From positions 23,174 to 87,173 of the forward strand of contig DISH01000004.1 of the NCBI GenBank assembly GCA_002421665.1: 64,000 nt of DNA, written 5' to 3'. The position numbers were made by a program, and so were the translations under genes. Below are positions 45,161 to 59,614 of the stretch, piece by piece (position 1 is the stretch's first letter; each line of letters begins with the position of its first letter). The notes under the pieces are model-generated. The model saw nothing but the letters and a program-made list of their open reading frames with translations. It made no database searches and had not been told where the DNA came from. Source of the DNA: Candidatus Omnitrophica bacterium UBA6215. Lineage in GTDB: Bacteria > Omnitrophota > Gorgyraeia > Pluralincolimonadales > Pluralincolimonadaceae.

Positions 45161-46141
45161 ATGACAATAACCGTCCTTTTTCTGATCCTGCTCGCATTAT
45201 TGTTCGATTTTTTGAACGGTTTTCACGATTCGGCTAACTCAATAGCTACGATCGTGTCAACCAGGGTCCTTTCGCCGCGCCACGCAGTATTGTGGGCGGC
45301 GTTTTTTAATTTTGTGGCTTTCCTTTTCTTCGGCCTTCATGTAGCCAATACCATAGGCAAGGGTATCATAGACATTGCCATAATAGATAACGGCATCATT
45401 TTTGGCACGCTGATCGGCGCCTGCGGATGGAACATCATAACCTGGTATTTCGGCCTTCCGACCAGTTCGTCGCATGCCCTTATGGGCGGGCTTATAGGGG
45501 CCGGCATGGTCAAAGCTGGGAGCGGCGCGCTGGTCTGGAGCGGCATAATGAAGACAGCGGCATTTATAATCGTCTCCCCGGTACTCGGGCTTGTGCTGGG
45601 TCTTCTGTTCGGTGTCGGGGTTTATTGGGTGTTCCGCAAGAGCGCCCCGCTGAAAGTAGACAACATATTCAGGAAGGGCCAACTTGTGTCCGCGGCAGCT
45701 TACAGCCTCGGCCACGGAGGCAATGATGCCCAGAAGACAATGGGTATCATTGCCAGTCTCCTGTTCAGCGCCGGGCTCCTCGGCAAGGAGTTCCATATAC
45801 CCTTTTTCGTGGTCATAATGTGCCATGCCGCGATAGCGCTCGGTACCATGTTCGGCGGATGGCGTATTGTCAAAACGATGGGACAGAAGGTCTCCAAGCT
45901 CAAGCCGGTCGACGGTTTTTGCGCAGAGTCAGGCGCGGCCATTACCCTGTTCATGTCTTCGGCGCTGGGTATACCGGTAAGTACTACCCATACCATAACA
46001 GGAGCTATAATGGGAGTAGGTTCCCTTAGGCGCCTTAGTGCCGTGCGCTGGGGCGTTGCCGGACAGATCGTGTGGGCATGGATACTGACGATCCCGTGCT
46101 CGGCGCTGATCTCGGCTTTGGCCTACAGCCTGGTCAAATGA
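45161..46141 (+). CDS. pit: inorganic phosphate transporter, PiT (PHO4) family
   Basis: LNGFHDSANSIAT signature present twice (N and C halves). Confidence 0.85.
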   Translation: MTITVLFLILLALLFDFLNGFHDSANSIATIVSTRVLSPRHAVLWAAFFNFVAFLFFGLHVANTIGKGIIDIAIIDNGIIFGTLIGACGWNIITWYFGLPTSSSHALMGGLIGAGMVKAGSGALVWSGIMKTAAFIIVSPVLGLVLGLLFGVGVYWVFRKSAPLKVDNIFRKGQLVSAAAYSLGHGGNDAQKTMGIIASLLFSAGLLGKEFHIPFFVVIMCHAAIALGTMFGGWRIVKTMGQKVSKLKPVDGFCAESGAAITLFMSSALGIPVSTTHTITGAIMGVGSLRRLSAVRWGVAGQIVWAWILTIPCSALISALAYSLVK

Positions 46142-47538
46142 GATATTACCATTCCCTGTTCGGCGGTTTCCGAGCCAAGGTCACCATAGCGTTTGTCCTG
46201 TCTCTTTTCTTCGTCGCAGTCCTTAGCAATTTCCTGCTTTACAGGTACAGCTATAATTCCCGCTTCTCGCAGTTAAGGGAAGAACTCGAATTTGTCGCCC
46301 AGACCGCTGCCCTCGGGGTCGACGAGAAAACCCTCACGCAGGTTCCGCTTGACCGTAAAGGCATAGAAAGCCCCGAATACGAAAAGATAGCAGGGCAGTT
46401 AAGGAGGATCAAGAATTCCAATCCCCAGATAGTCTTCATATATACCATGACCGCGACCGGAGAGGACGGTAAATGGCGGTTCATCGTAGACCCCGATCCT
46501 TCCGGCAGGGAGAAGAGGGAAGACGGGCCGACTGCTTATCCGGGAGATACATATGACGTTTCGCGTTTCCCGGATATGAAAAAGGCCCTCGAAAGGCCGT
46601 CCGCCGATACTAAGCTTATGGAAGATGAGTGGGGTGTCACGCTTTCAGGTTATGCGCCAATACGCGATGACAGCGGCAGAACGGTAGCCATCCTCGGCAT
46701 AGATATGAGCGCTAACAAGGTCAGGGATATGGCCAAAGACCTGAACCGCAGGGCCCTGTTGGTGCTCCTTCTCGGGATATTCGTGGCGGCGGTGCTCGGC
46801 CTGCTGGTGGGAAAGAGTACCACCGACCCGATCAGGAAACTCGAGGAAGCAACCGAGAGGATCTCCTCCGGAGATTTCAAGTACAGGGTAGATATCAGGG
46901 GCAATGATGAGATCAGCCGTCTCGGAAAGGCCTTCAACCGGATGGCCGAGAGCATATCGGAATCGAGGAAAGCCCTGCAGGATTATTTTTACAGGATAGT
47001 CCAAACCCTTGCGCGCAGCATCGAAGCCAAGGATACATATACCAAAGGCCACTCGGACAGGGTCGCCGAGTACGCGAGGAAGATAGCCGTGGAGATGGGT
47101 CTCTCCGAAGAGGAAGCCGAGATGCTCAAGAGCGTAGCCGAGTTGCATGACATAGGAAAGCTCGGTATCGAGGAGAGCATATTGAACAAGGACGGAAAAC
47201 CGTCTCCGGAAGAATGGGAGATAATCAAGGAGCATCCCAAGACAGGCGAAGAGATACTTACGCCCGTCTTTCTTGACAAGAAGAAACTGGCCATAGTAAG
47301 GTCGCATCACGAAAGATATGACGGCAAGGGCTATCCCGACGGCCTAAAGGGCGACGAGATAGATATACTCGCCCAGATAGTCTCGGTGGCCGACTCATAT
47401 GATGCCATGACCTCAAAGCGTGCTTACAGGAATTCCCTTGGCAAGGCCGCCGCGATAGAGGAATTGATGAAGAACAGCGGGACACAGTTCAACCCCAAAG
47501 TGGTCGAGGCTTTCCTCAGGGTTCTCGAAAGGGAATGA
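46138..47538 (+). CDS. membrane HD-GYP phosphodiesterase with TM-Cache-TM-HAMP sensor
   Basis: ATGA overlap with pit. KGHSDRVAEY...LHDIGKLGI...HHERYDGKGYPDGL HD-GYP motifs. Confidence 0.8.
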   Translation: MRYYHSLFGGFRAKVTIAFVLSLFFVAVLSNFLLYRYSYNSRFSQLREELEFVAQTAALGVDEKTLTQVPLDRKGIESPEYEKIAGQLRRIKNSNPQIVFIYTMTATGEDGKWRFIVDPDPSGREKREDGPTAYPGDTYDVSRFPDMKKALERPSADTKLMEDEWGVTLSGYAPIRDDSGRTVAILGIDMSANKVRDMAKDLNRRALLVLLLGIFVAAVLGLLVGKSTTDPIRKLEEATERISSGDFKYRVDIRGNDEISRLGKAFNRMAESISESRKALQDYFYRIVQTLARSIEAKDTYTKGHSDRVAEYARKIAVEMGLSEEEAEMLKSVAELHDIGKLGIEESILNKDGKPSPEEWEIIKEHPKTGEEILTPVFLDKKKLAIVRSHHERYDGKGYPDGLKGDEIDILAQIVSVADSYDAMTSKRAYRNSLGKAAAIEELMKNSGTQFNPKVVEAFLRVLERE

Positions 47539-51167: not shown

Positions 51168-51555
51168 AAAAATATACTACCACGATACCGATTGCGGGGG
51201 AGTGGTGTATTACGCGAATTACCTGAAATACCTTGAGGAAGGCCGTACGGAGTTTCTCGGGTCTCTTGGTATAAATGCTCCCGATTACGCGCGCAAGGGC
51301 GTAGTTTTTCCGGTGGTGCGCATTGAAGCCGATTACAAAGCCCCGGCCCGTTACGGCGACAAGATAACTGTCTTGACCTCGCTTGAAAAGGCGGGCAGGG
51401 CTTCGGTCATGTTCTGCCAGCAGGTAAAGAGGGATGACATACTGCTTTTTTCCGGAATCGTGACATTGGCCTGCGTAGACAGCCGCATGAAGACCCGCCC
51501 CATGCCCGCAGAGATAAGAGAGAAGATCGAAGAATGGATATCAGCAGGCGCATAA
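51127..51555 (+). CDS. acyl-CoA thioesterase, YbgC/4HBT hotdog family
   Basis: YHDTDCGGVVYYANYLKYLEEGRTEFL motif. Confidence 0.8.
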   Translation: MMSSGHKRQHLLNKKIYYHDTDCGGVVYYANYLKYLEEGRTEFLGSLGINAPDYARKGVVFPVVRIEADYKAPARYGDKITVLTSLEKAGRASVMFCQQVKRDDILLFSGIVTLACVDSRMKTRPMPAEIREKIEEWISAGA

Positions 51556-52508
51556 AAAAACTTTCCCTCGTATTGGCAGTAGCCGCTATCCTGGCGGCGA
51601 TAAGCTTTCTGGCATGGCTCAACCACAGGGATTTTGAGCGGGCCATGTTGAAGCAGGCGCGGAAACAGCTGCATATCATAGCGAAGTCCGAGGCCCAGAG
51701 CATAGAGGAATACATGAGCGACATCCACCGCGAGATGGAGATACTCTCTTCCGAAGGGATAGTCCGGTCGGCTGTCAGGGGCAGGGACGTTGATTCCGCG
51801 GTTTTTCAAGAGGTCCTTTCAGGCGCTTATGAAGATACCAAGTCGCTCGTGGAGGCCTTATATCTTATGGATGCGGAAGGCAGGATCATTGCGTTTGCCC
51901 CGCCGGGGATCAAGCCCTCCGAGGGCGGTCTTTTATCGTGTACCGACGTAAAAGAGATGCTCTCCGGGAAAAGGTCGTTTACGACCGGAGTATTCATGCA
52001 AGCGCCCCGGGACAGGGTCGTGGCGGCGCTTTGTCCCGTGTTTGACGGTCCGGATTTCGCCGGGTTCTTGAGGGCTGTCATATCCGTGGACAGGATAGAG
52101 GCGCTTGTTGCGCATATAAATACGGAAAAGGATATCAACATAGAGATCTTCGACGAGAACGGAATGGTCATAAATTACGTCGGAGAGAATGTGATAACCC
52201 GCCCGGTCTCTGCTTCCGTACCCATAAAGGTCGGTTCCGAGAACTGGTCTGTAAAAGTAACTATGGATTACGCTGCCATAGTCAATCCTATAAATAAGAA
52301 CGCGCGTGATAACCTGATCTTCGTGTGTTTTGTCCTGATAGTCCTGGGCGCAGCCGGAACGGTTCTCTACCGGATAGAAAAGAGGAACGCCGAGCTGTCC
52401 ATATCCAAGACAGTGGCCGACCTGATAAATAAGCAGCTGCATCTGGAGATCGATAAGCGCCGCGAGATAGAGAGAAAACTCAAAGATTGCATGAGGGGAA
52501 GGCAGTAA
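51534..52508 (+). CDS. membrane Cache-like sensor protein without output domain
   Basis: TM1, about 250-aa extracytoplasmic domain, TM2, then a short coiled-coil tail. Confidence 0.5.
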   Translation: MDISRRIKKLSLVLAVAAILAAISFLAWLNHRDFERAMLKQARKQLHIIAKSEAQSIEEYMSDIHREMEILSSEGIVRSAVRGRDVDSAVFQEVLSGAYEDTKSLVEALYLMDAEGRIIAFAPPGIKPSEGGLLSCTDVKEMLSGKRSFTTGVFMQAPRDRVVAALCPVFDGPDFAGFLRAVISVDRIEALVAHINTEKDINIEIFDENGMVINYVGENVITRPVSASVPIKVGSENWSVKVTMDYAAIVNPINKNARDNLIFVCFVLIVLGAAGTVLYRIEKRNAELSISKTVADLINKQLHLEIDKRREIERKLKDCMRGRQ

Positions 52509-53942: not shown

Positions 53943-53964
53943 AGTTAGAAGGCCTGATCGCAGC

Positions 53965-54006
53965 GCAAATCCCAGGTAAAAAAATACTTGGGATTTGCGT
54001 TTTTTG
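53965..54006 (+). terminator. Rho-independent terminator
   Basis: GCAAATCCCAGGT / ACTTGGGATTTGC 13-bp stem (1 mismatch), A-rich loop, then GTTTTTTGA. Confidence 0.7.
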
Positions 54007-54059
54007 ATGTATAATTTACCAGTAGTTCCCGACACCGGCCAAAGAATGGGGAGGTCCGC

Positions 54060-55037
54060 ATGAAAAATAAAGCCTTGATCCGCGGTGCAGTGGTTTTGTC
54101 ATTGTTATTCTGCATGAATTCCATTTTTGCTTCAGACTGGTTCGTCAGTAAACAGGACAGGGTCGCCAAGAGAGACCTGCAGCTCCAGGAACTGCAGGAG
54201 AAATTCCATTGGTGGCCTACCGATGCCCAGCCGTCGCCTGTAAAAGACGCGGACATGGGAGGTTACTGGTGGATGCCAACCCAGCCCGGCGCTTCTACCC
54301 CGTGGGGAAACAGGGGTTATATATATGTATATAAGCTCATCTATGATTATAAGGCCGATGAATTGCCCCCGGCACAGCCTAAGGAACTAAGGCCTTCGCT
54401 GCTTATAAAGAACATAAAGAAGAACGTCAAGATATATTTCGATTATGACAAGGCCGCCATACGCGACGACGCCAGGAAGATACTGGATAATGCCGTATGG
54501 ACCCTCAAGCATAACCCGGAATGCAGCATTCTTATAACCGGAAACTGCGACATACGCGGCAGCGAGAAGTATAACGAGAAGCTTGGGCGCCGCAGGGCCG
54601 AGGCGATCAGGCAGTACATGGCCGATAATGGCATATCCGAAAGCTCCATCAAGATAGTCAGCCGCGGAAAACTGGATGCCGTTGCCCCGGTAACGGACCT
54701 GGTCGGTATGCAGAAAGACCGCAATGCCCAGTTCATGATAGCCGAGGTAGAGGAGGTCATGATACCGGCCCCCGACGAAGCCCCCGTGGAGATATCCGAC
54801 GCGACAAAAGTCTCTGAAAATAGGTACCTCCTGGAAGAAGAGAAGAACGTGGAGAGCAGGGTCAGGGTTTCCACGAGGGAATACACGGTAAAGAAAGGGG
54901 ATACCTTATCCTCGATAGCCAAACAAGAACTTGGCAAGGCCAATAGGTGGAAATATCTTTACGAGATCAATAAAGACAGGATCAAAGACCCGAACAAGCT
55001 TAAAGCGGGCACAAAAATAATCATTCCCATAGAATGA
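54060..55037 (+). CDS. OmpA-family protein with C-terminal LysM domain
   Basis: Signal peptide. OmpA_C core (NCDIRGSEKYNEKLGRRRAEA). LysM (YTVKKGDTLSSIAK...GTKIIIP). Confidence 0.8.
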   Translation: MKNKALIRGAVVLSLLFCMNSIFASDWFVSKQDRVAKRDLQLQELQEKFHWWPTDAQPSPVKDADMGGYWWMPTQPGASTPWGNRGYIYVYKLIYDYKADELPPAQPKELRPSLLIKNIKKNVKIYFDYDKAAIRDDARKILDNAVWTLKHNPECSILITGNCDIRGSEKYNEKLGRRRAEAIRQYMADNGISESSIKIVSRGKLDAVAPVTDLVGMQKDRNAQFMIAEVEEVMIPAPDEAPVEISDATKVSENRYLLEEEKNVESRVRVSTREYTVKKGDTLSSIAKQELGKANRWKYLYEINKDRIKDPNKLKAGTKIIIPIE

Positions 55038-56626
55038 AATTTATCGAAATTGTGAACACTCCCCGGTTCCGTCTTCGCCTGCTGTTGGCCGTTTTTGCGG
55101 CGCTGGTTGCCGCTAGATTAGCGGTCCATGCCTTCGGGGTCTCTCTCGGCTATCTCTATCTTATACTGATATGCCTTGGGGGTCTCTGGTTCGGGTACAA
55201 GGGCGGCATCCTTTCGGCCACCGCCGCTTCCGCCGTATTCCTCTTCGAGATAAGCCTTTACCGCGATTGGCCCCTCAGGGATGCAGTGGCCGGAAACTCG
55301 CTTTCGCGGATATTTTTCTATTACCTGGGCGGCCTGGTCATGGCAATGCTCGCCGATGCCGAAAGGCGGTTCAGGAGCGGCAACCTCAAGAAATTCCTGT
55401 CGGCGAAGAAAAAGAAGATATTCACAGATGAGCCCCTGTCCACCAGGGACAGGTTCCTCGATGTAACTTCATCGAACAAATTCCGCATATGGTTCCTGAT
55501 ATGCGGTTTTCTGGTATTTGTCGGGATAAGGCTGGGTTCGCACGCTTTCGGGTTTTCTCTGGGTTATCTCTATCTTACACTTGTCTGTCTTGCGGGGTTT
55601 TGGTTCGGGCTGCCGGGGGGCCTTATCTCTGCTGCGGCTGCATCGGCCATATTTTTCGCGGAGGTAAACCTTTTCCCCGATTGGCCCCTCAGGGATGTCG
55701 TTGTCAAAAGCATGTATCTTAGGATGCTCTTCTTTTTCGCGGGCGGTATCGCGATGTCATTCCTGTCAGAGATGGACAGGCAGTTGAGGGAGAAGCTCAA
55801 AGAACTCGCCAGGTACGATGAGCTCACCAATTGCGTAAATTTCAGGTGGATAATGGAGATCCTGGCCAGCGAAATAAACCGCTGCCGCCGTTACCATAAA
55901 GAGATGGCGGTCATAATGATGGACATCGACCATTTCAAGGATATAAACGACAAATTCGGGCATGTCGCCGGCAACAAAGTTCTCAGGGAGTTCGCTGCGA
56001 CCGTGAAGGCCAATGTGAGGAACGTGGATATAGTAGGCAGGTACGGGGGAGAGGAGTTCCTTATCGTCCTGCCCGAGGCCAACCATAAGCAGGCCCTCAG
56101 GGTCCTCGAGAGGGTAAAGAGCAAAATGGTTGAGATGAAATTGCCTTTTAATATGGCCGAAGATGGGCTAAAGCCTGTCCTTCATTTCAGCGCAGGCATC
56201 GCATCCTTCCCGCTTAACGGAAAAGGCCTTGAGGAGATAATTAACGTTGCCGACAGGGCGCTGTACCAGGCGAAATCCGGAGGCCGGAACCGCATAATAG
56301 TCGAGAGGAGGAGGTTCATCAGGATAAAGCCCCTGTCGAGCCTTAACGTGGAATTTTCGGAACCCGTATCCGATAAAGATCTTAAGGTAGTGGAGATAGT
56401 CAATATCTCCGAGAGCGGGATACTGGCCGTCTTAGGCAGCCAGACTCAATGCGAGGAGATCATCTGCAGGATACACCTGCCCGGCAAGAATTCCAAGACT
56501 GAATTGAAGTGCAAGGTTGTCCATAAGGAGCGTCCCGATAAAGACCTCTACCTTATGGGGATGTATTTTATGAATGCCGATCCTTCCCTGAAGGAGGCGC
56601 TCTCCGCCCTGGCAGGCGTCAAATGA
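55034..56626 (+). CDS. diguanylate cyclase (GGDEF) with duplicated N-terminal membrane module and C-terminal PilZ domain
   Basis: RYGGEEF active site; two about 90-aa homologous TM modules; PilZ-like C-terminal about 110 aa. Confidence 0.75.
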   Translation: MKFIEIVNTPRFRLRLLLAVFAALVAARLAVHAFGVSLGYLYLILICLGGLWFGYKGGILSATAASAVFLFEISLYRDWPLRDAVAGNSLSRIFFYYLGGLVMAMLADAERRFRSGNLKKFLSAKKKKIFTDEPLSTRDRFLDVTSSNKFRIWFLICGFLVFVGIRLGSHAFGFSLGYLYLTLVCLAGFWFGLPGGLISAAAASAIFFAEVNLFPDWPLRDVVVKSMYLRMLFFFAGGIAMSFLSEMDRQLREKLKELARYDELTNCVNFRWIMEILASEINRCRRYHKEMAVIMMDIDHFKDINDKFGHVAGNKVLREFAATVKANVRNVDIVGRYGGEEFLIVLPEANHKQALRVLERVKSKMVEMKLPFNMAEDGLKPVLHFSAGIASFPLNGKGLEEIINVADRALYQAKSGGRNRIIVERRRFIRIKPLSSLNVEFSEPVSDKDLKVVEIVNISESGILAVLGSQTQCEEIICRIHLPGKNSKTELKCKVVHKERPDKDLYLMGMYFMNADPSLKEALSALAGVK

Positions 56627-58091
56627 TCAACTTCCGGTCCTTAACCAGAGGGTTTTCCTTTATTTCCTTAGATACTGATTCGCTCAGGCCGGGTTTGCCC
56701 AGTTTAAAATACATGTAATTCTTGTATCCTTCCACACCGGGCTGGTCGAAAGCATTTATCCCCAGGAGCTCGCCTTCAAAAGCCGTGGCCATTTCGAAGA
56801 AGAAGAGGAGCGCGCCCCAATGGTAAGCCGACACTTCAGGCATTATGACGGTGCAATTCGGCCTGGATTCCCTGACAAGCGCCCACTCGGTGGCTTCCTG
56901 CGCAAGACCCATGAGGCCGGAGTACTTCTTGCCCGATAAGATACCGTTGCCTGACGGTATCCTCAATTCCCGCGCGAACTTTTCCACTCGGATAAATGTA
57001 ACCGCCTTATTATTCATTCCCTCGATGTTATTTTGCTGTATCGAATGCAGGTCATTTGTGCCGCGCGCGGATATCGGGGTACGTCCGACGTTGACCGTCC
57101 TGCCGTTTTCATTTATCCACGCTTCTCCGCCGTCCCGGGATTTTTCCACTTTCCTGGCGTATTTTTTCCCGAGGCTCTCGGCCAGCATCTGTATATACCA
57201 GTCGGCGGTAGATTTCAGGGTTTCGGAGAAGGGCATCAATATAGCTATGTCTTTGCCTTTCATCCTGTAGAGTATCGTGTGGAGCGCTGCATACATATAT
57301 GCCGGGTTCTTGTATACGTCCGGAGTTGAGCAACGCTTTGACATATCCGCGGCGCCCTTCAGGACCTTGCGTATATCCACGCCTATTATTGCCAGGTGGA
57401 GCAGGCCCATATTGAATTCCGAGAAACGCCCTCCGACGCCCTTCATAAGAGGCAGGCTCCTGAAGCTTAGCCTGTCTTTTTTCTGTTCGGCATCCACGGT
57501 TTTCCTGAGACTGCCGGAAGCCGGGTCGGTTATGGCGAAGACCTGCCTGCCGTAGCGTTTGCCGATGCTTTTCCTGAGCCATTCCTGTACGGCTATGAAG
57601 GCCGCTTTTGTCTCGGTCGTCTCTCCGGACTTGGATATTACTACCACGAAAGTTTTCTTGGGGTTCAGGTTCTTCAGCAGGACGCTTAAGGTGTCCGGGT
57701 CAAGGTTGTTTCCCTCGAAGTATACGCGCGGCCTGTTTCCCCTGGCCCCTGCGAAATCGTTATAATAGGGGGAGCAGAGCGCGTCCTGGGCGGCCTTGAG
57801 CCCGAGGTATGAACCGCCTATGCCGAGCGATATGACGTTCTCGTATTTTTTTGCTATTTCATTACCGAGTTTCCGGATCGCCTCGACGGTTTTTTCGTCC
57901 TGGAAGGGCAGGCGCGCCCACTCCAGGCCTATGCATATCCTGGAGGCCTTGTCCGAAAGGACGCCGCTTAAATGATCGTGCGCCTCCTTGATAGAGTAGG
58001 AGAGGGCCTCGAGCTCGGATTCATCGACGCCGTGCCCGTTCCCTACACGGGCCCCGAACATATTATTGAAGTCAAACCTGATCTTGTCCAT
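56619..58091 (-). CDS. pgi: glucose-6-phosphate isomerase
   Basis: 490 aa; FDQPGVEGYK PGI signature; SIS domains. Confidence 0.75.
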   Translation of the reverse strand: MDKIRFDFNNMFGARVGNGHGVDESELEALSYSIKEAHDHLSGVLSDKASRICIGLEWARLPFQDEKTVEAIRKLGNEIAKKYENVISLGIGGSYLGLKAAQDALCSPYYNDFAGARGNRPRVYFEGNNLDPDTLSVLLKNLNPKKTFVVVISKSGETTETKAAFIAVQEWLRKSIGKRYGRQVFAITDPASGSLRKTVDAEQKKDRLSFRSLPLMKGVGGRFSEFNMGLLHLAIIGVDIRKVLKGAADMSKRCSTPDVYKNPAYMYAALHTILYRMKGKDIAILMPFSETLKSTADWYIQMLAESLGKKYARKVEKSRDGGEAWINENGRTVNVGRTPISARGTNDLHSIQQNNIEGMNNKAVTFIRVEKFARELRIPSGNGILSGKKYSGLMGLAQEATEWALVRESRPNCTVIMPEVSAYHWGALLFFFEMATAFEGELLGINAFDQPGVEGYKNYMYFKLGKPGLSESVSKEIKENPLVKDRKLII

Positions 58092-58168: not shown

Positions 58169-59614
58169 TTGACGATAGAAGCAGGGAAGAAACCTTTATT
58201 GTTCACCTTCCGGGCCAAGACAGCGATACTTATAGTACTGTCGATGGTCCTTGTCGTATCCGTTACGAACCTTTTCGTATACCGCTACCTGCTCGATTCG
58301 GAAATGAATTCCATGCGCAACGACCTCAGGACCATTGCGAGGTCCGCGGCGTTCAGGATAGATGCGGAAGCCTTAACTAAGATCCCTCTTAATCCCGGCG
58401 GGGTCAATACCCAGGAATACAGGATAGTATCCGAAGAGCTGAAGAGGATCATAAGGCAGAACCCGGACATAAAATATATCTACACCCTTACTTCTTCCGA
58501 CAGGAAAGGCATGCTCAGGTTTATCGTTGACCCTATATTGCCGACCCGCGAACAGCAGAGCAGGGGGTTGTCTTCCAAGCCGGGAGATCTCTACGACGCT
58601 TCCAGGTATCCCGAGATGCTCAAGGCATTTGAGGGCCCTACCTCAGACAGGAAGATAGTAATAGACGAGTGGGGGGCCGCTCTTTCCGGATACTCTCCCA
58701 TATTCGACAACGAGGGGAAAGCCGTTGCTATAGTCGGCGTTGATATAACCGCGGACGAAATATACGCCAGGCAAAAAGAGGTGCGCAACCGCGCCATGAC
58801 GGCAATGGCTGTCGCCGTGGCGTTCTCCATCCTATTGGCGATATTCCTCTCGAGGAGAATATCCGGCAAGCTCGTCAAGCTCCTGGAAGGTTCTCGCCAT
58901 CTGGCGAGCGGCGACCTTGGGTACAAGATAGACCTTGAAGGCGCCGACGAATTAGGAGAACTCGCAACGTCTTTCAACCAGCTGGCTTCCAAGCTCAGCG
59001 AGTCCAAAAAAGACCTTTTATCGTATTTCTACAGGGTAGTGCAATCGTTTGTCCGTATACTCGAGGCAAGGGACAGCTATACCAAGGGCCATTCCGAGAG
59101 GGTCGCCGAATACGCCGAGAAGATAGCCCTCAGGATAGGCCTTCCGAAGGAAAAGATAGAGCTGTTGAAGAAGGCGACTCTCCTCCATGATATAGGTAAG
59201 CTGGGCATCGAAGAGAGGATACTCAACAAGAGGGAACCCCTTAGCCAGGCCGAATGGACCGAGATACGCAAACATCCCGTTATCGGAGAGAATATACTTA
59301 AACCCGTCCTTTTGACAGGGGAGATGCTCGACATAGTCCGCAGCCACCACGAACGTTATGACGGCAAGGGCTATCCGGACGGATTAGCCGGTGACAAGAT
59401 AAACATCCTGTCCTCTATAGTTACCGTTGCCGATTCCTACGATGCCATGACCTCCGCAAGGGCTTACAGGCCTCCGTTGAACAGGCAGCAGGCCATAGAT
59501 GAGCTCAGGAGGAATAAGGGCTCGCAGTTCAATCCAAGGGTCGTCGATGTCCTTATAGAGATCCTGGAAGAAGAGAAGCGCGGTCAGGACAAGGCGCGGA
59601 AAAATAACGATTGA
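58169..59614 (+). CDS. membrane HD-GYP phosphodiesterase with TM-Cache-TM-HAMP sensor (paralog of 46138-47538)
   Basis: TTG start. KGHSERVAEY...LHDIGKLGI...HHERYDGKGYPDGL. Confidence 0.8.
   Translation: MTIEAGKKPLLFTFRAKTAILIVLSMVLVVSVTNLFVYRYLLDSEMNSMRNDLRTIARSAAFRIDAEALTKIPLNPGGVNTQEYRIVSEELKRIIRQNPDIKYIYTLTSSDRKGMLRFIVDPILPTREQQSRGLSSKPGDLYDASRYPEMLKAFEGPTSDRKIVIDEWGAALSGYSPIFDNEGKAVAIVGVDITADEIYARQKEVRNRAMTAMAVAVAFSILLAIFLSRRISGKLVKLLEGSRHLASGDLGYKIDLEGADELGELATSFNQLASKLSESKKDLLSYFYRVVQSFVRILEARDSYTKGHSERVAEYAEKIALRIGLPKEKIELLKKATLLHDIGKLGIEERILNKREPLSQAEWTEIRKHPVIGENILKPVLLTGEMLDIVRSHHERYDGKGYPDGLAGDKINILSSIVTVADSYDAMTSARAYRPPLNRQQAIDELRRNKGSQFNPRVVDVLIEILEEEKRGQDKARKNND

Follow-up and report, generated by a model that had tools for sequence, protein, structure and literature searches.

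We analysed a 64,000-nucleotide stretch of contig DISH01000004.1 from Candidatus Omnitrophica bacterium UBA6215 (hereafter the window). The gene of interest lies at positions 55034-56626 of the window and encodes a 530-residue protein in four parts: two tandem modules of four predicted transmembrane (TM) helices (residues 6-115 and 144-255), a GGDEF domain (259-420) and a PilZ domain (424-526). We predict that the product is a diguanylate cyclase of the inner membrane, from a Candidatus Omnitrophota bacterium, and give the explanation developed below, taken as a whole, an even chance of being correct. An earlier, sequence-only reading had described a GGDEF cyclase whose membrane module is internally duplicated, with a PilZ domain at the C-terminus; Pfam, a self-alignment, motifs and fold matches all bear this out. 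To this description we add an intact inhibitory site (I-site), an asparagine at residue 314, an affinity of the module to DUF4118 and a conserved coupling to an OmpA-LysM gene. A database protein identical to the window protein (P0126) is present on 15 contigs.

The GGDEF and PilZ domains

The gene and the features of its cytoplasmic part are as follows.

55034-56626, + strand: whole gene, membrane GGDEF-PilZ protein of 530 amino acids (open reading frame list, ATG start)
55808-56293, + strand: GGDEF domain, residues 259-420 (Pfam, TIGR00254, Foldseek)
55973-55975, + strand: Asn314 codon, equivalent in position to PleD Asp344, which recognises guanine; motif DIDHFKDINDKFGHVAGN
56018-56029, + strand: I-site, R329-N-V-D332 (translation)
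56045-56059, + strand: GGEEF active-site motif, residues 338-342 (translation)
56303-56611, + strand: PilZ domain, residues 424-526, beta-barrel and C-terminal helix (Pfam, AlphaFold2 models, fold matches)
56309-56323, + strand: PilZ RxxxR motif, R426-R-F-I-R430, directly after the last GGDEF strand
56402-56419, + strand: PilZ [D/N]hSxxG motif, N457-I-S-E-S-G462

The GGDEF domain matches PF00990 with 150 bits (threshold 23.8) and TIGR00254 with 168.4 bits (threshold 37.4). The full-length AlphaFold2 model has a predicted local distance difference test (pLDDT) score of 80.6, and of about 85-94 across the GGDEF domain. The best Foldseek matches are solved cyclases, namely 5llx, PleD, WspR and DgcR, with E-values of about 1e-13, and also DosC and others. 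The GGEEF motif is intact, as had been claimed, and is shared by 37 of the 45 relatives whose alignment underlies all such counts given here; in the form GG[DE]EF it is invariant among the 45. It follows the I-site after five residues (RNVD, then IVGRY, then GGEEF), and the Arg and Asp of the I-site are found in all 45. The metal and phosphate residues D297, K302 and N305 (PleD D327, K332 and N335) and GGEEF itself are invariant or nearly so in the family. The domain thus resembles those of PleD, WspR and DgcR in its fold, its GG[DE]EF motif, its metal and phosphate residues and the RxxD five residues upstream. It differs from them in having a membrane module where they have a receiver (REC) sensor, in the appended PilZ domain and in the Asn that replaces the guanine-binding Asp (PleD D344).

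This Asn is a property of the whole family. It occurs in 85 of the 85 GGDEF proteins of the family that we examined, among them relatives that lack PilZ and others whose sensor is PAS or dCache. By comparison, Asp is found in 63 of 63 generic GGDEF matches, and in 84 of the 86 domains of a second control drawn from 80 unrelated genomes, with one Asn and one Ser. The second control comprises 80 unrelated GGDEF loci from a genome-collection scan with the whole protein; its matches are driven by the generic MMDIDHFK pattern and include no orthologs. The two exceptions in this control are L009, from an Actinomycetes metagenome-assembled genome (MAG), which has Asn, and L085, from an Acidobacteria MAG, which has Ser and is possibly a Hypr-type enzyme.

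Asp at this position is reported to be essential for guanine binding and activity (PMC7288161). It drives GTP specificity, and its replacement by Ser leads to the synthesis of cyclic GMP-AMP (cGAMP) (PMC6456294). The Hypr GGDEFs (e.g. GacA and Bd0367) are substituted at this same base-recognition position, but they are defined by Ser or Thr (position 348 in GacA) exclusively together with GGDEF (PMC6456294). The combination here is Asn with GGEEF, which rules out Hypr membership. We found no literature on Asn at the PleD D344 position. Asn314 may bear on nucleotide specificity. We nevertheless regard cyclic di-GMP (c-di-GMP) as the likely product, since a hydrogen bond from Asn to guanine is still possible and the protein has two predicted c-di-GMP sites.

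The C-terminal domain is, by our prediction, a canonical PilZ of the c-di-GMP-binding type, since three independent lines agree: Pfam matches, the invariance of its motifs among the 45 relatives, and a fold match. The profile search suggested by the sequence-only reading returns PF07238 at residues 424-525 with 30.1 bits (cut-off 22.5), and 43 of the 45 relatives match the same model, with a best E-value of 1.1e-12. That reading had also pointed to two motifs, RxxxR and 'DxSxGG'. The first is present, with R426 and R430 in all 45 relatives, and starts about two residues past the final GGDEF strand. The second is absent as written, being a misquotation of the canonical second motif, [D/N]hSxxG (Galperin and Chou, bioRxiv 10.1101/814665), which is present; Asn or Asp is found in 45 of 45, S459 in 44 and G462 in 45. 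When the last 112 residues are modelled with AlphaFold (pLDDT 84.5), DSSP assigns to them a six-stranded beta-barrel followed by a C-terminal helix. The best matches of this model in the PDB are all PilZ domains (BcsA 4p00, Alg44 4rt0/4xrn, PlzA 7mie, MotI 5vx6, PP4397 and MrkH; TM-score 0.58-0.68), the first five being solved with c-di-GMP bound. With BcsA, Alg44, PP4397, PlzA and MotI it shares RxxxR, [D/N]hSxxG and the barrel with its helix. Unlike in these effectors, the domain next to the RxxxR linker is here the enzyme predicted to make the ligand.

One copy of the protein is split on a 19.7-kb JGI contig into P0122 (401 residues) and P0125 (92 residues). The PilZ end forms a separate gene that is automatically named 'flagellar brake protein YcgR', and the split is probably a frameshift or a sequencing error.

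The tandem membrane module

The N-terminal half of the protein contains the following features.

55049-55378, + strand: membrane module copy 1, residues 6-115, four predicted TM helices, DUF4118-like (self-alignment, module hidden Markov model, hydropathy and charge)
55379-55462, + strand: basic inter-module linker, residues 116-143, predicted to be cytoplasmic and disordered (charge; AlphaFold2 pLDDT below 50 at residues 118-135)
55463-55798, + strand: membrane module copy 2, residues 144-255, counterpart of the single module in relatives of about 400 residues (self-alignment, module hidden Markov model, tree)
55265-55283, + strand: first copy of a 19-mer, encoding D78-W-P-L-R-D83 of the TM3-TM4 loop
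55679-55697, + strand: second copy of the 19-mer, encoding D216-W-P-L-R-D221

A tandem repeat had been noticed at residues 33-120 and 171-258, approximately; it is in fact larger. Residues 2-115 and 140-253 align without gaps in a protein self-alignment, with 52 of 114 positions identical (46%; E 9e-34). The repeat is also seen when the DNA is realigned, where the copies are 58.7% identical in the same register, and 47% identical at third codon positions. The 19-mer GATTGGCCCCTCAGGGATG does occur exactly twice, as the sequence-only reading had reported, at a spacing of 414 nucleotides or 138 codons, and was not found in any of 100 shuffles.

That reading took the 19-mer as a sign of a relatively recent duplication, a view that does not hold. 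Both module copies are carried by every ortholog down to 67% identity, and six database proteins of 514-532 residues that are 67-96% identical to the window protein have them. About fifty relatives of roughly 400 residues have a single module followed by GGDEF-PilZ, so the comparison with single-module relatives that had been proposed can be made. All module copies were compared in a neighbour-joining tree. One of its clades comprises the N-terminal copies of the two-module proteins, and another the C-proximal copies together with the single module of P0007. Lists of nearest neighbours agree with the tree, each copy grouping with its counterpart in other proteins. The duplication is thus older than the split of the two-module orthologs, because N-terminal copies group with N-terminal copies and C-proximal with C-proximal. 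The N-terminal copy is the faster evolving (61-66% identity to more distant orthologs, compared with 72-78% for the C-proximal copy), and every family-invariant residue is kept in both copies, the faster one included.

The tandem modules, then, arose by an old duplication. That the duplication is recent, or an artefact of assembly, is scarcely credible. An exact repeat of 19 nucleotides would favour recency, as would the number of identical codons at identical residues, which somewhat exceeds expectation (26 of 49, compared with 17.7 expected from codon usage). Against this stand the low identity of the copies in protein and at third positions, the fact that orthologs of 67-96% identity, and 15 independent contigs, carry both of them, and the orthology of each copy between proteins. 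Furthermore, the 19-mer encodes the conserved DWPLRD loop, and the probability that all six codons coincide by chance is about 0.007. The identical pair is also found in the 96%-identical ortholog (locus L001), whereas in the orthologous loci L002-L004 the copies differ in synonymous codons at the motif. Given this difference and the chance of coincidence, the 19-mer is no sign of youth; it is due either to chance or to a short tract of conversion within one lineage, and is uninformative on the age of the duplication.

What is the module? An exhaustive profile search with 35 module sequences among 1.84 billion proteins returned 85 cluster representatives at E<=1e-3 and 49 at E<=1e-10; a word-index search with the module alignment returned three fragments only. 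A Pfam scan of 71 module-profile matches found GGDEF in 32, PilZ in 16, HisKA in 22, DUF4118 in 22 and SpoIIE in 3. In P0179, P0182 and P0187 the module match coincides with the residues that Pfam assigns to DUF4118 (PF13493). For this reason we interpret the module as a rare, divergent branch of DUF4118, the membrane domain known from KdpD-type histidine kinases. The two have in common a length of about 110 residues and four predicted hydrophobic helices directly before an output domain, and the module profile reaches DUF4118-HisKA and DUF4118-SpoIIE proteins. The window module differs in being tandem, in its own subfamily motifs (HAFGxSLGYLY, GxWFG..GG, DWPxRD, an invariant Glu in TM3 and an invariant Arg in TM4) and in its sub-threshold Pfam match, at 15.9 bits against a gathering score of 28.4. 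Only 4 of the 45 relatives match DUF4118 at E<=0.01. Judged from sequence, membership of the GGDEF and PilZ families is sound, apart from Asn314, and that of DUF4118 is remote. MASE1 (PF05231) was rejected as an identity for the module, as it scores 19.5 bits against 29.8 and is matched only at profile positions 187-257 of 299.

Each module shows four hydrophobic segments by hydropathy, and the 41-residue loop between the modules (residues 109-149) holds 12 Lys or Arg, with residues 118-135 disordered in the AlphaFold2 model. By the positive-inside rule and hydropathy we infer four TM helices per module, cytoplasmic positions for both ends of the module, and periplasmic ones for the conserved HAFGxS and DWPLRD loops. 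The DSSP string of the AlphaFold2 model, unlike hydropathy, fuses TM2 and TM3 into one long helix. These long helices had prompted a three-TM inverted-repeat topology, which we rejected since the N-terminus and the linker with its 12 basic residues both look cytoplasmic.

Two modules ahead of GGDEF-PilZ are also found in other lineages, namely in P0035 (L089, 1406-2905), P0132, P0133, P0134 and P0135. In P0035 the two copies group with each other and with the P0132 copies, outside the clade of the window protein; this suggests that the module was duplicated repeatedly, at least once more. That said, the distance tree is built on about 110 residues, and a single older duplication followed by losses is also compatible with it.

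The domains behind and around the module are exchanged as well. The GGDEF(Asn)-PilZ unit sits behind a single module, behind PAS and behind dCache-HAMP-PAS (P0051 and P0055), so PilZ travels with the cyclase and not with the sensor. Six relatives without PilZ (P0049, P0052, P0053, P0058, P0136 and P0138) have a soluble N-terminal domain of about 145 residues, with one weak STAS match, before module-GGDEF(Asn). The module-GGDEF(Asn) core therefore combines with different accessory domains. The 145-residue N-terminus was also considered as a decayed first module, and was ruled out as such because it is a soluble domain without module signal.

Genomic neighbourhood

The surroundings of the gene in the window are listed below.

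53962-54015, + strand: terminator-like hairpin after the OprB porin gene (53962-54001, 17-bp stem and T-run) with an overlapping promoter-like site (53988-54015; consensus scan only)
54060-55037, + strand: gene of an OmpA and LysM protein, 325 residues, signal-like N-terminus (Pfam, sequence)
56619-58091, - strand: convergent glucose-6-phosphate isomerase gene, conserved in L001-L004 (open reading frame list, Pfam)
58169-59614, + strand: downstream HAMP and HD-GYP phosphodiesterase paralog, HD and GYP motifs intact (Pfam; also in L001, L002 and L004)
46072-47538, + strand: upstream HAMP and HD-GYP paralog, listed GTG start (Pfam)

The stop codon of the OmpA-LysM gene overlaps the start codon of the cyclase (TGA/ATG, as ATGA at 55034-55037). 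In all four orthologous loci, L001-L004, an OmpA-LysM gene of 323-325 codons lies directly upstream with the same kind of overlap. The two genes probably form an operon, which fits the terminator-like hairpin and the promoter-like site ahead of the OmpA-LysM gene. The pairing is not a property of the whole family: single-module members have a conserved context of their own (M16 peptidase, RsfS, cyclase, ROK, transaldolase and LptD), and P0007 and the P0035/P0132 group lie in yet other contexts. On the other side, the 3' ends of the cyclase and isomerase genes overlap by 8 nucleotides in the window (56619-56626) and by 4 in L002-L004, and thus leave no room for a terminator between them.

The sequence-only reading had placed the gene between two HD-GYP paralogs. 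They do flank it, though neither is adjacent, the one lying about 7.5 kb upstream and the other 1.5 kb downstream. The two are 48% identical, match the HD_5/HD profiles with 118.6 and 109.6 bits, and both contain the HDIGK and HHERYDGKGYP motifs. The downstream gene is preceded by a receiver-domain gene in two loci (the L003 contig ends before that point), and the upstream gene is also found in L001 and L003. The listed GTG start at 46072 overlaps a PHO4 transporter gene by about 70 nucleotides, and the L001 ortholog is called 24 codons shorter, at 464 residues; for these reasons the true start of the upstream gene probably lies further downstream. No other GGDEF or PilZ gene was found within the window.

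A further gene, at 51534-52508, encodes a 324-residue protein with a dCache_1 sensor, one more hydrophobic segment and a short coiled tail, and without an output domain. Since its L001 ortholog is equally long, the protein is probably not truncated.

Proposed product feedback and its alternatives

Why should a cyclase with an I-site also carry a dedicated receptor for its product? This family is a compact case of that question, and feedback tuning, bistability and local output are candidate answers. We propose that the membrane modules anchor the enzyme. They would also have one of two roles, the sensing of a cue from the membrane or envelope, or control over how the cyclase domains pair. As a tandem they may pack into a pseudo-dimer within one molecule and so alter how two GGDEF domains meet. 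The enzyme would make c-di-GMP, for which the I-site and the linker and barrel of PilZ could then be binding places in cis. The RxxxR segment of characterised PilZ proteins is described as flexible until it closes around c-di-GMP, whereupon it draws the adjacent domain onto the barrel (Benach et al. 2007, as cited in PMC10333796). By analogy, c-di-GMP binding in this protein would lead PilZ to dock against the GGDEF domain, and the encounter of two GGDEF domains that catalysis needs would be restrained. Such docking would be a second and probably differently tuned layer of product feedback, while the flanking HAMP-HD-GYP enzymes would degrade the signal, and the OmpA-LysM protein, probably co-transcribed, suggests a connection to the cell envelope.

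Product sensing in cis, as the sequence-only reading had suggested, is plausible. That it takes the form of a product-dependent PilZ clamp on the cyclase, added to I-site inhibition, is for us an evenly balanced proposition. It is the most economical reading because the domain next to the RxxxR linker is the cyclase. Several points count against it. The intact I-site would already give product inhibition, so that a second inhibitory site may be redundant, and Asn314 replaces an Asp reported to be essential (PMC7288161), which makes the product uncertain. Sequence-profile searches of the PDB found no significant match, either for the module, to any solved structure, or for the PilZ region. PilZ domains are known to diverge in sequence, and the latter result fits this divergence.

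It is possible, though on balance doubtful, that PilZ is an output and not a brake. Locally made c-di-GMP would then load the protein's own PilZ domain, which would bind or regulate a membrane partner, in the manner of BcsA, Alg44, YcgR and MotI, whose liganded PilZ domains regulate a partner. On this view the protein would be a local signalling device complete in itself. In PleD and WspR-type enzymes feedback needs no more than the I-site, so that PilZ may have a different purpose; the nearest structural matches of the domain are effector PilZ domains, and there are envelope-related candidate partners among the conserved neighbours (OmpA-LysM upstream, MotA/ExbB-ExbD downstream). However, no candidate cytoplasmic partner is conserved beside both the two-module and the single-module members, and RxxxR follows GGDEF with almost no linker, which favours a direct mechanical coupling of PilZ with the cyclase.

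We think it unlikely that PilZ and the I-site serve to receive c-di-GMP of outside origin, with the GGDEF domain, of altered or relaxed specificity by analogy with the Hypr enzymes, making a different cyclic dinucleotide. A version in which the change from Asp to Asn relaxes the cyclase to ATP or another purine nucleoside triphosphate, with PilZ and the I-site as the c-di-GMP inputs, we rate as quite improbable. If the product were altered, GGDEF(Asn)-PilZ would be a cross-talk device from c-di-GMP to a second cyclic dinucleotide in the Omnitrophota and relatives. The contrast between 85 of 85 family members and 1 of 86 and 0 of 63 generic GGDEFs speaks for such a change, as does the Ser replacement that yields cGAMP, and in GacA the I-site stays specific for c-di-GMP even though the product is cGAMP (PMC6456294). 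The Hypr precedent is exclusively Ser or Thr with GGDEF, though, and this family has Asn with mostly GGEEF; the Asn side chain retains its capacity to hydrogen-bond guanine, no reports on Asn variants were found, and both HD-GYP neighbours have canonical motifs. It is very unlikely that the protein is a membrane c-di-GMP receptor with two sites, the I-site and PilZ, and with a GGDEF domain of little or no catalytic activity, since the loss of the Asp reported as essential is accompanied by the retention of D297, K302, N305 and GGEEF, which is atypical of degenerate GGDEF receptors.

The individual parts of the protein are all known. Fusions of PilZ with GGDEF were catalogued by Amikam and Galperin 2006 (as quoted in bioRxiv 10.1101/814665), and PilZ-GGDEF proteins have been counted in saprophytic Leptospira (PMC5932348). 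The window protein shares with these a synthase and a PilZ receptor on one polypeptide. They are census entries without characterisation, and PilZ stands first in the Leptospira label; in the window protein it lies at the C-terminus, directly against GGDEF, and the N-terminus is a tandem DUF4118-like module. We found no functional study of a GGDEF/PilZ fusion in the literature, where 'PilZ-GGDEF' appears only as a census category, and a search for the term 'GGDEF-PilZ' found no paper. Another membrane-embedded cyclase, ImcA of Pseudomonas aeruginosa (6TM-GGDEF, cryo-EM structure 8wcn), aligns over about 370 columns. Its TM domain is required for activity and it is regulated by the partner IsmP (PMC10904736). 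With its 6TM fold, its lack of PilZ, its regulation by a partner and a root-mean-square deviation of about 16 A, it is an analogue only.

What is new is the combination of a tandem DUF4118-like sensor, an Asn-type active site and PilZ in cis; also new are the family-wide Asn at the PleD D344 position and the translational coupling to OmpA-LysM in four loci. The invariant Asn, at a position that governs GTP specificity, offers a simple hypothesis on the substrate choice of GGDEF domains and is the most testable lead. The tandem module, found in several lineages, could reveal the way in which membrane modules control cyclase pairing. Apart from the PilZ fusion, the Asn and the tandem module, this is an ordinary, already automatically annotated signalling gene of an uncultured phylum. 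At NCBI a protein one residue different from that of the window, MFA5094468.1, is named 'diguanylate cyclase [Candidatus Omnitrophota bacterium]', and in an NCBIfam scan of the window protein a generic GGDEF domain is the sole name given.

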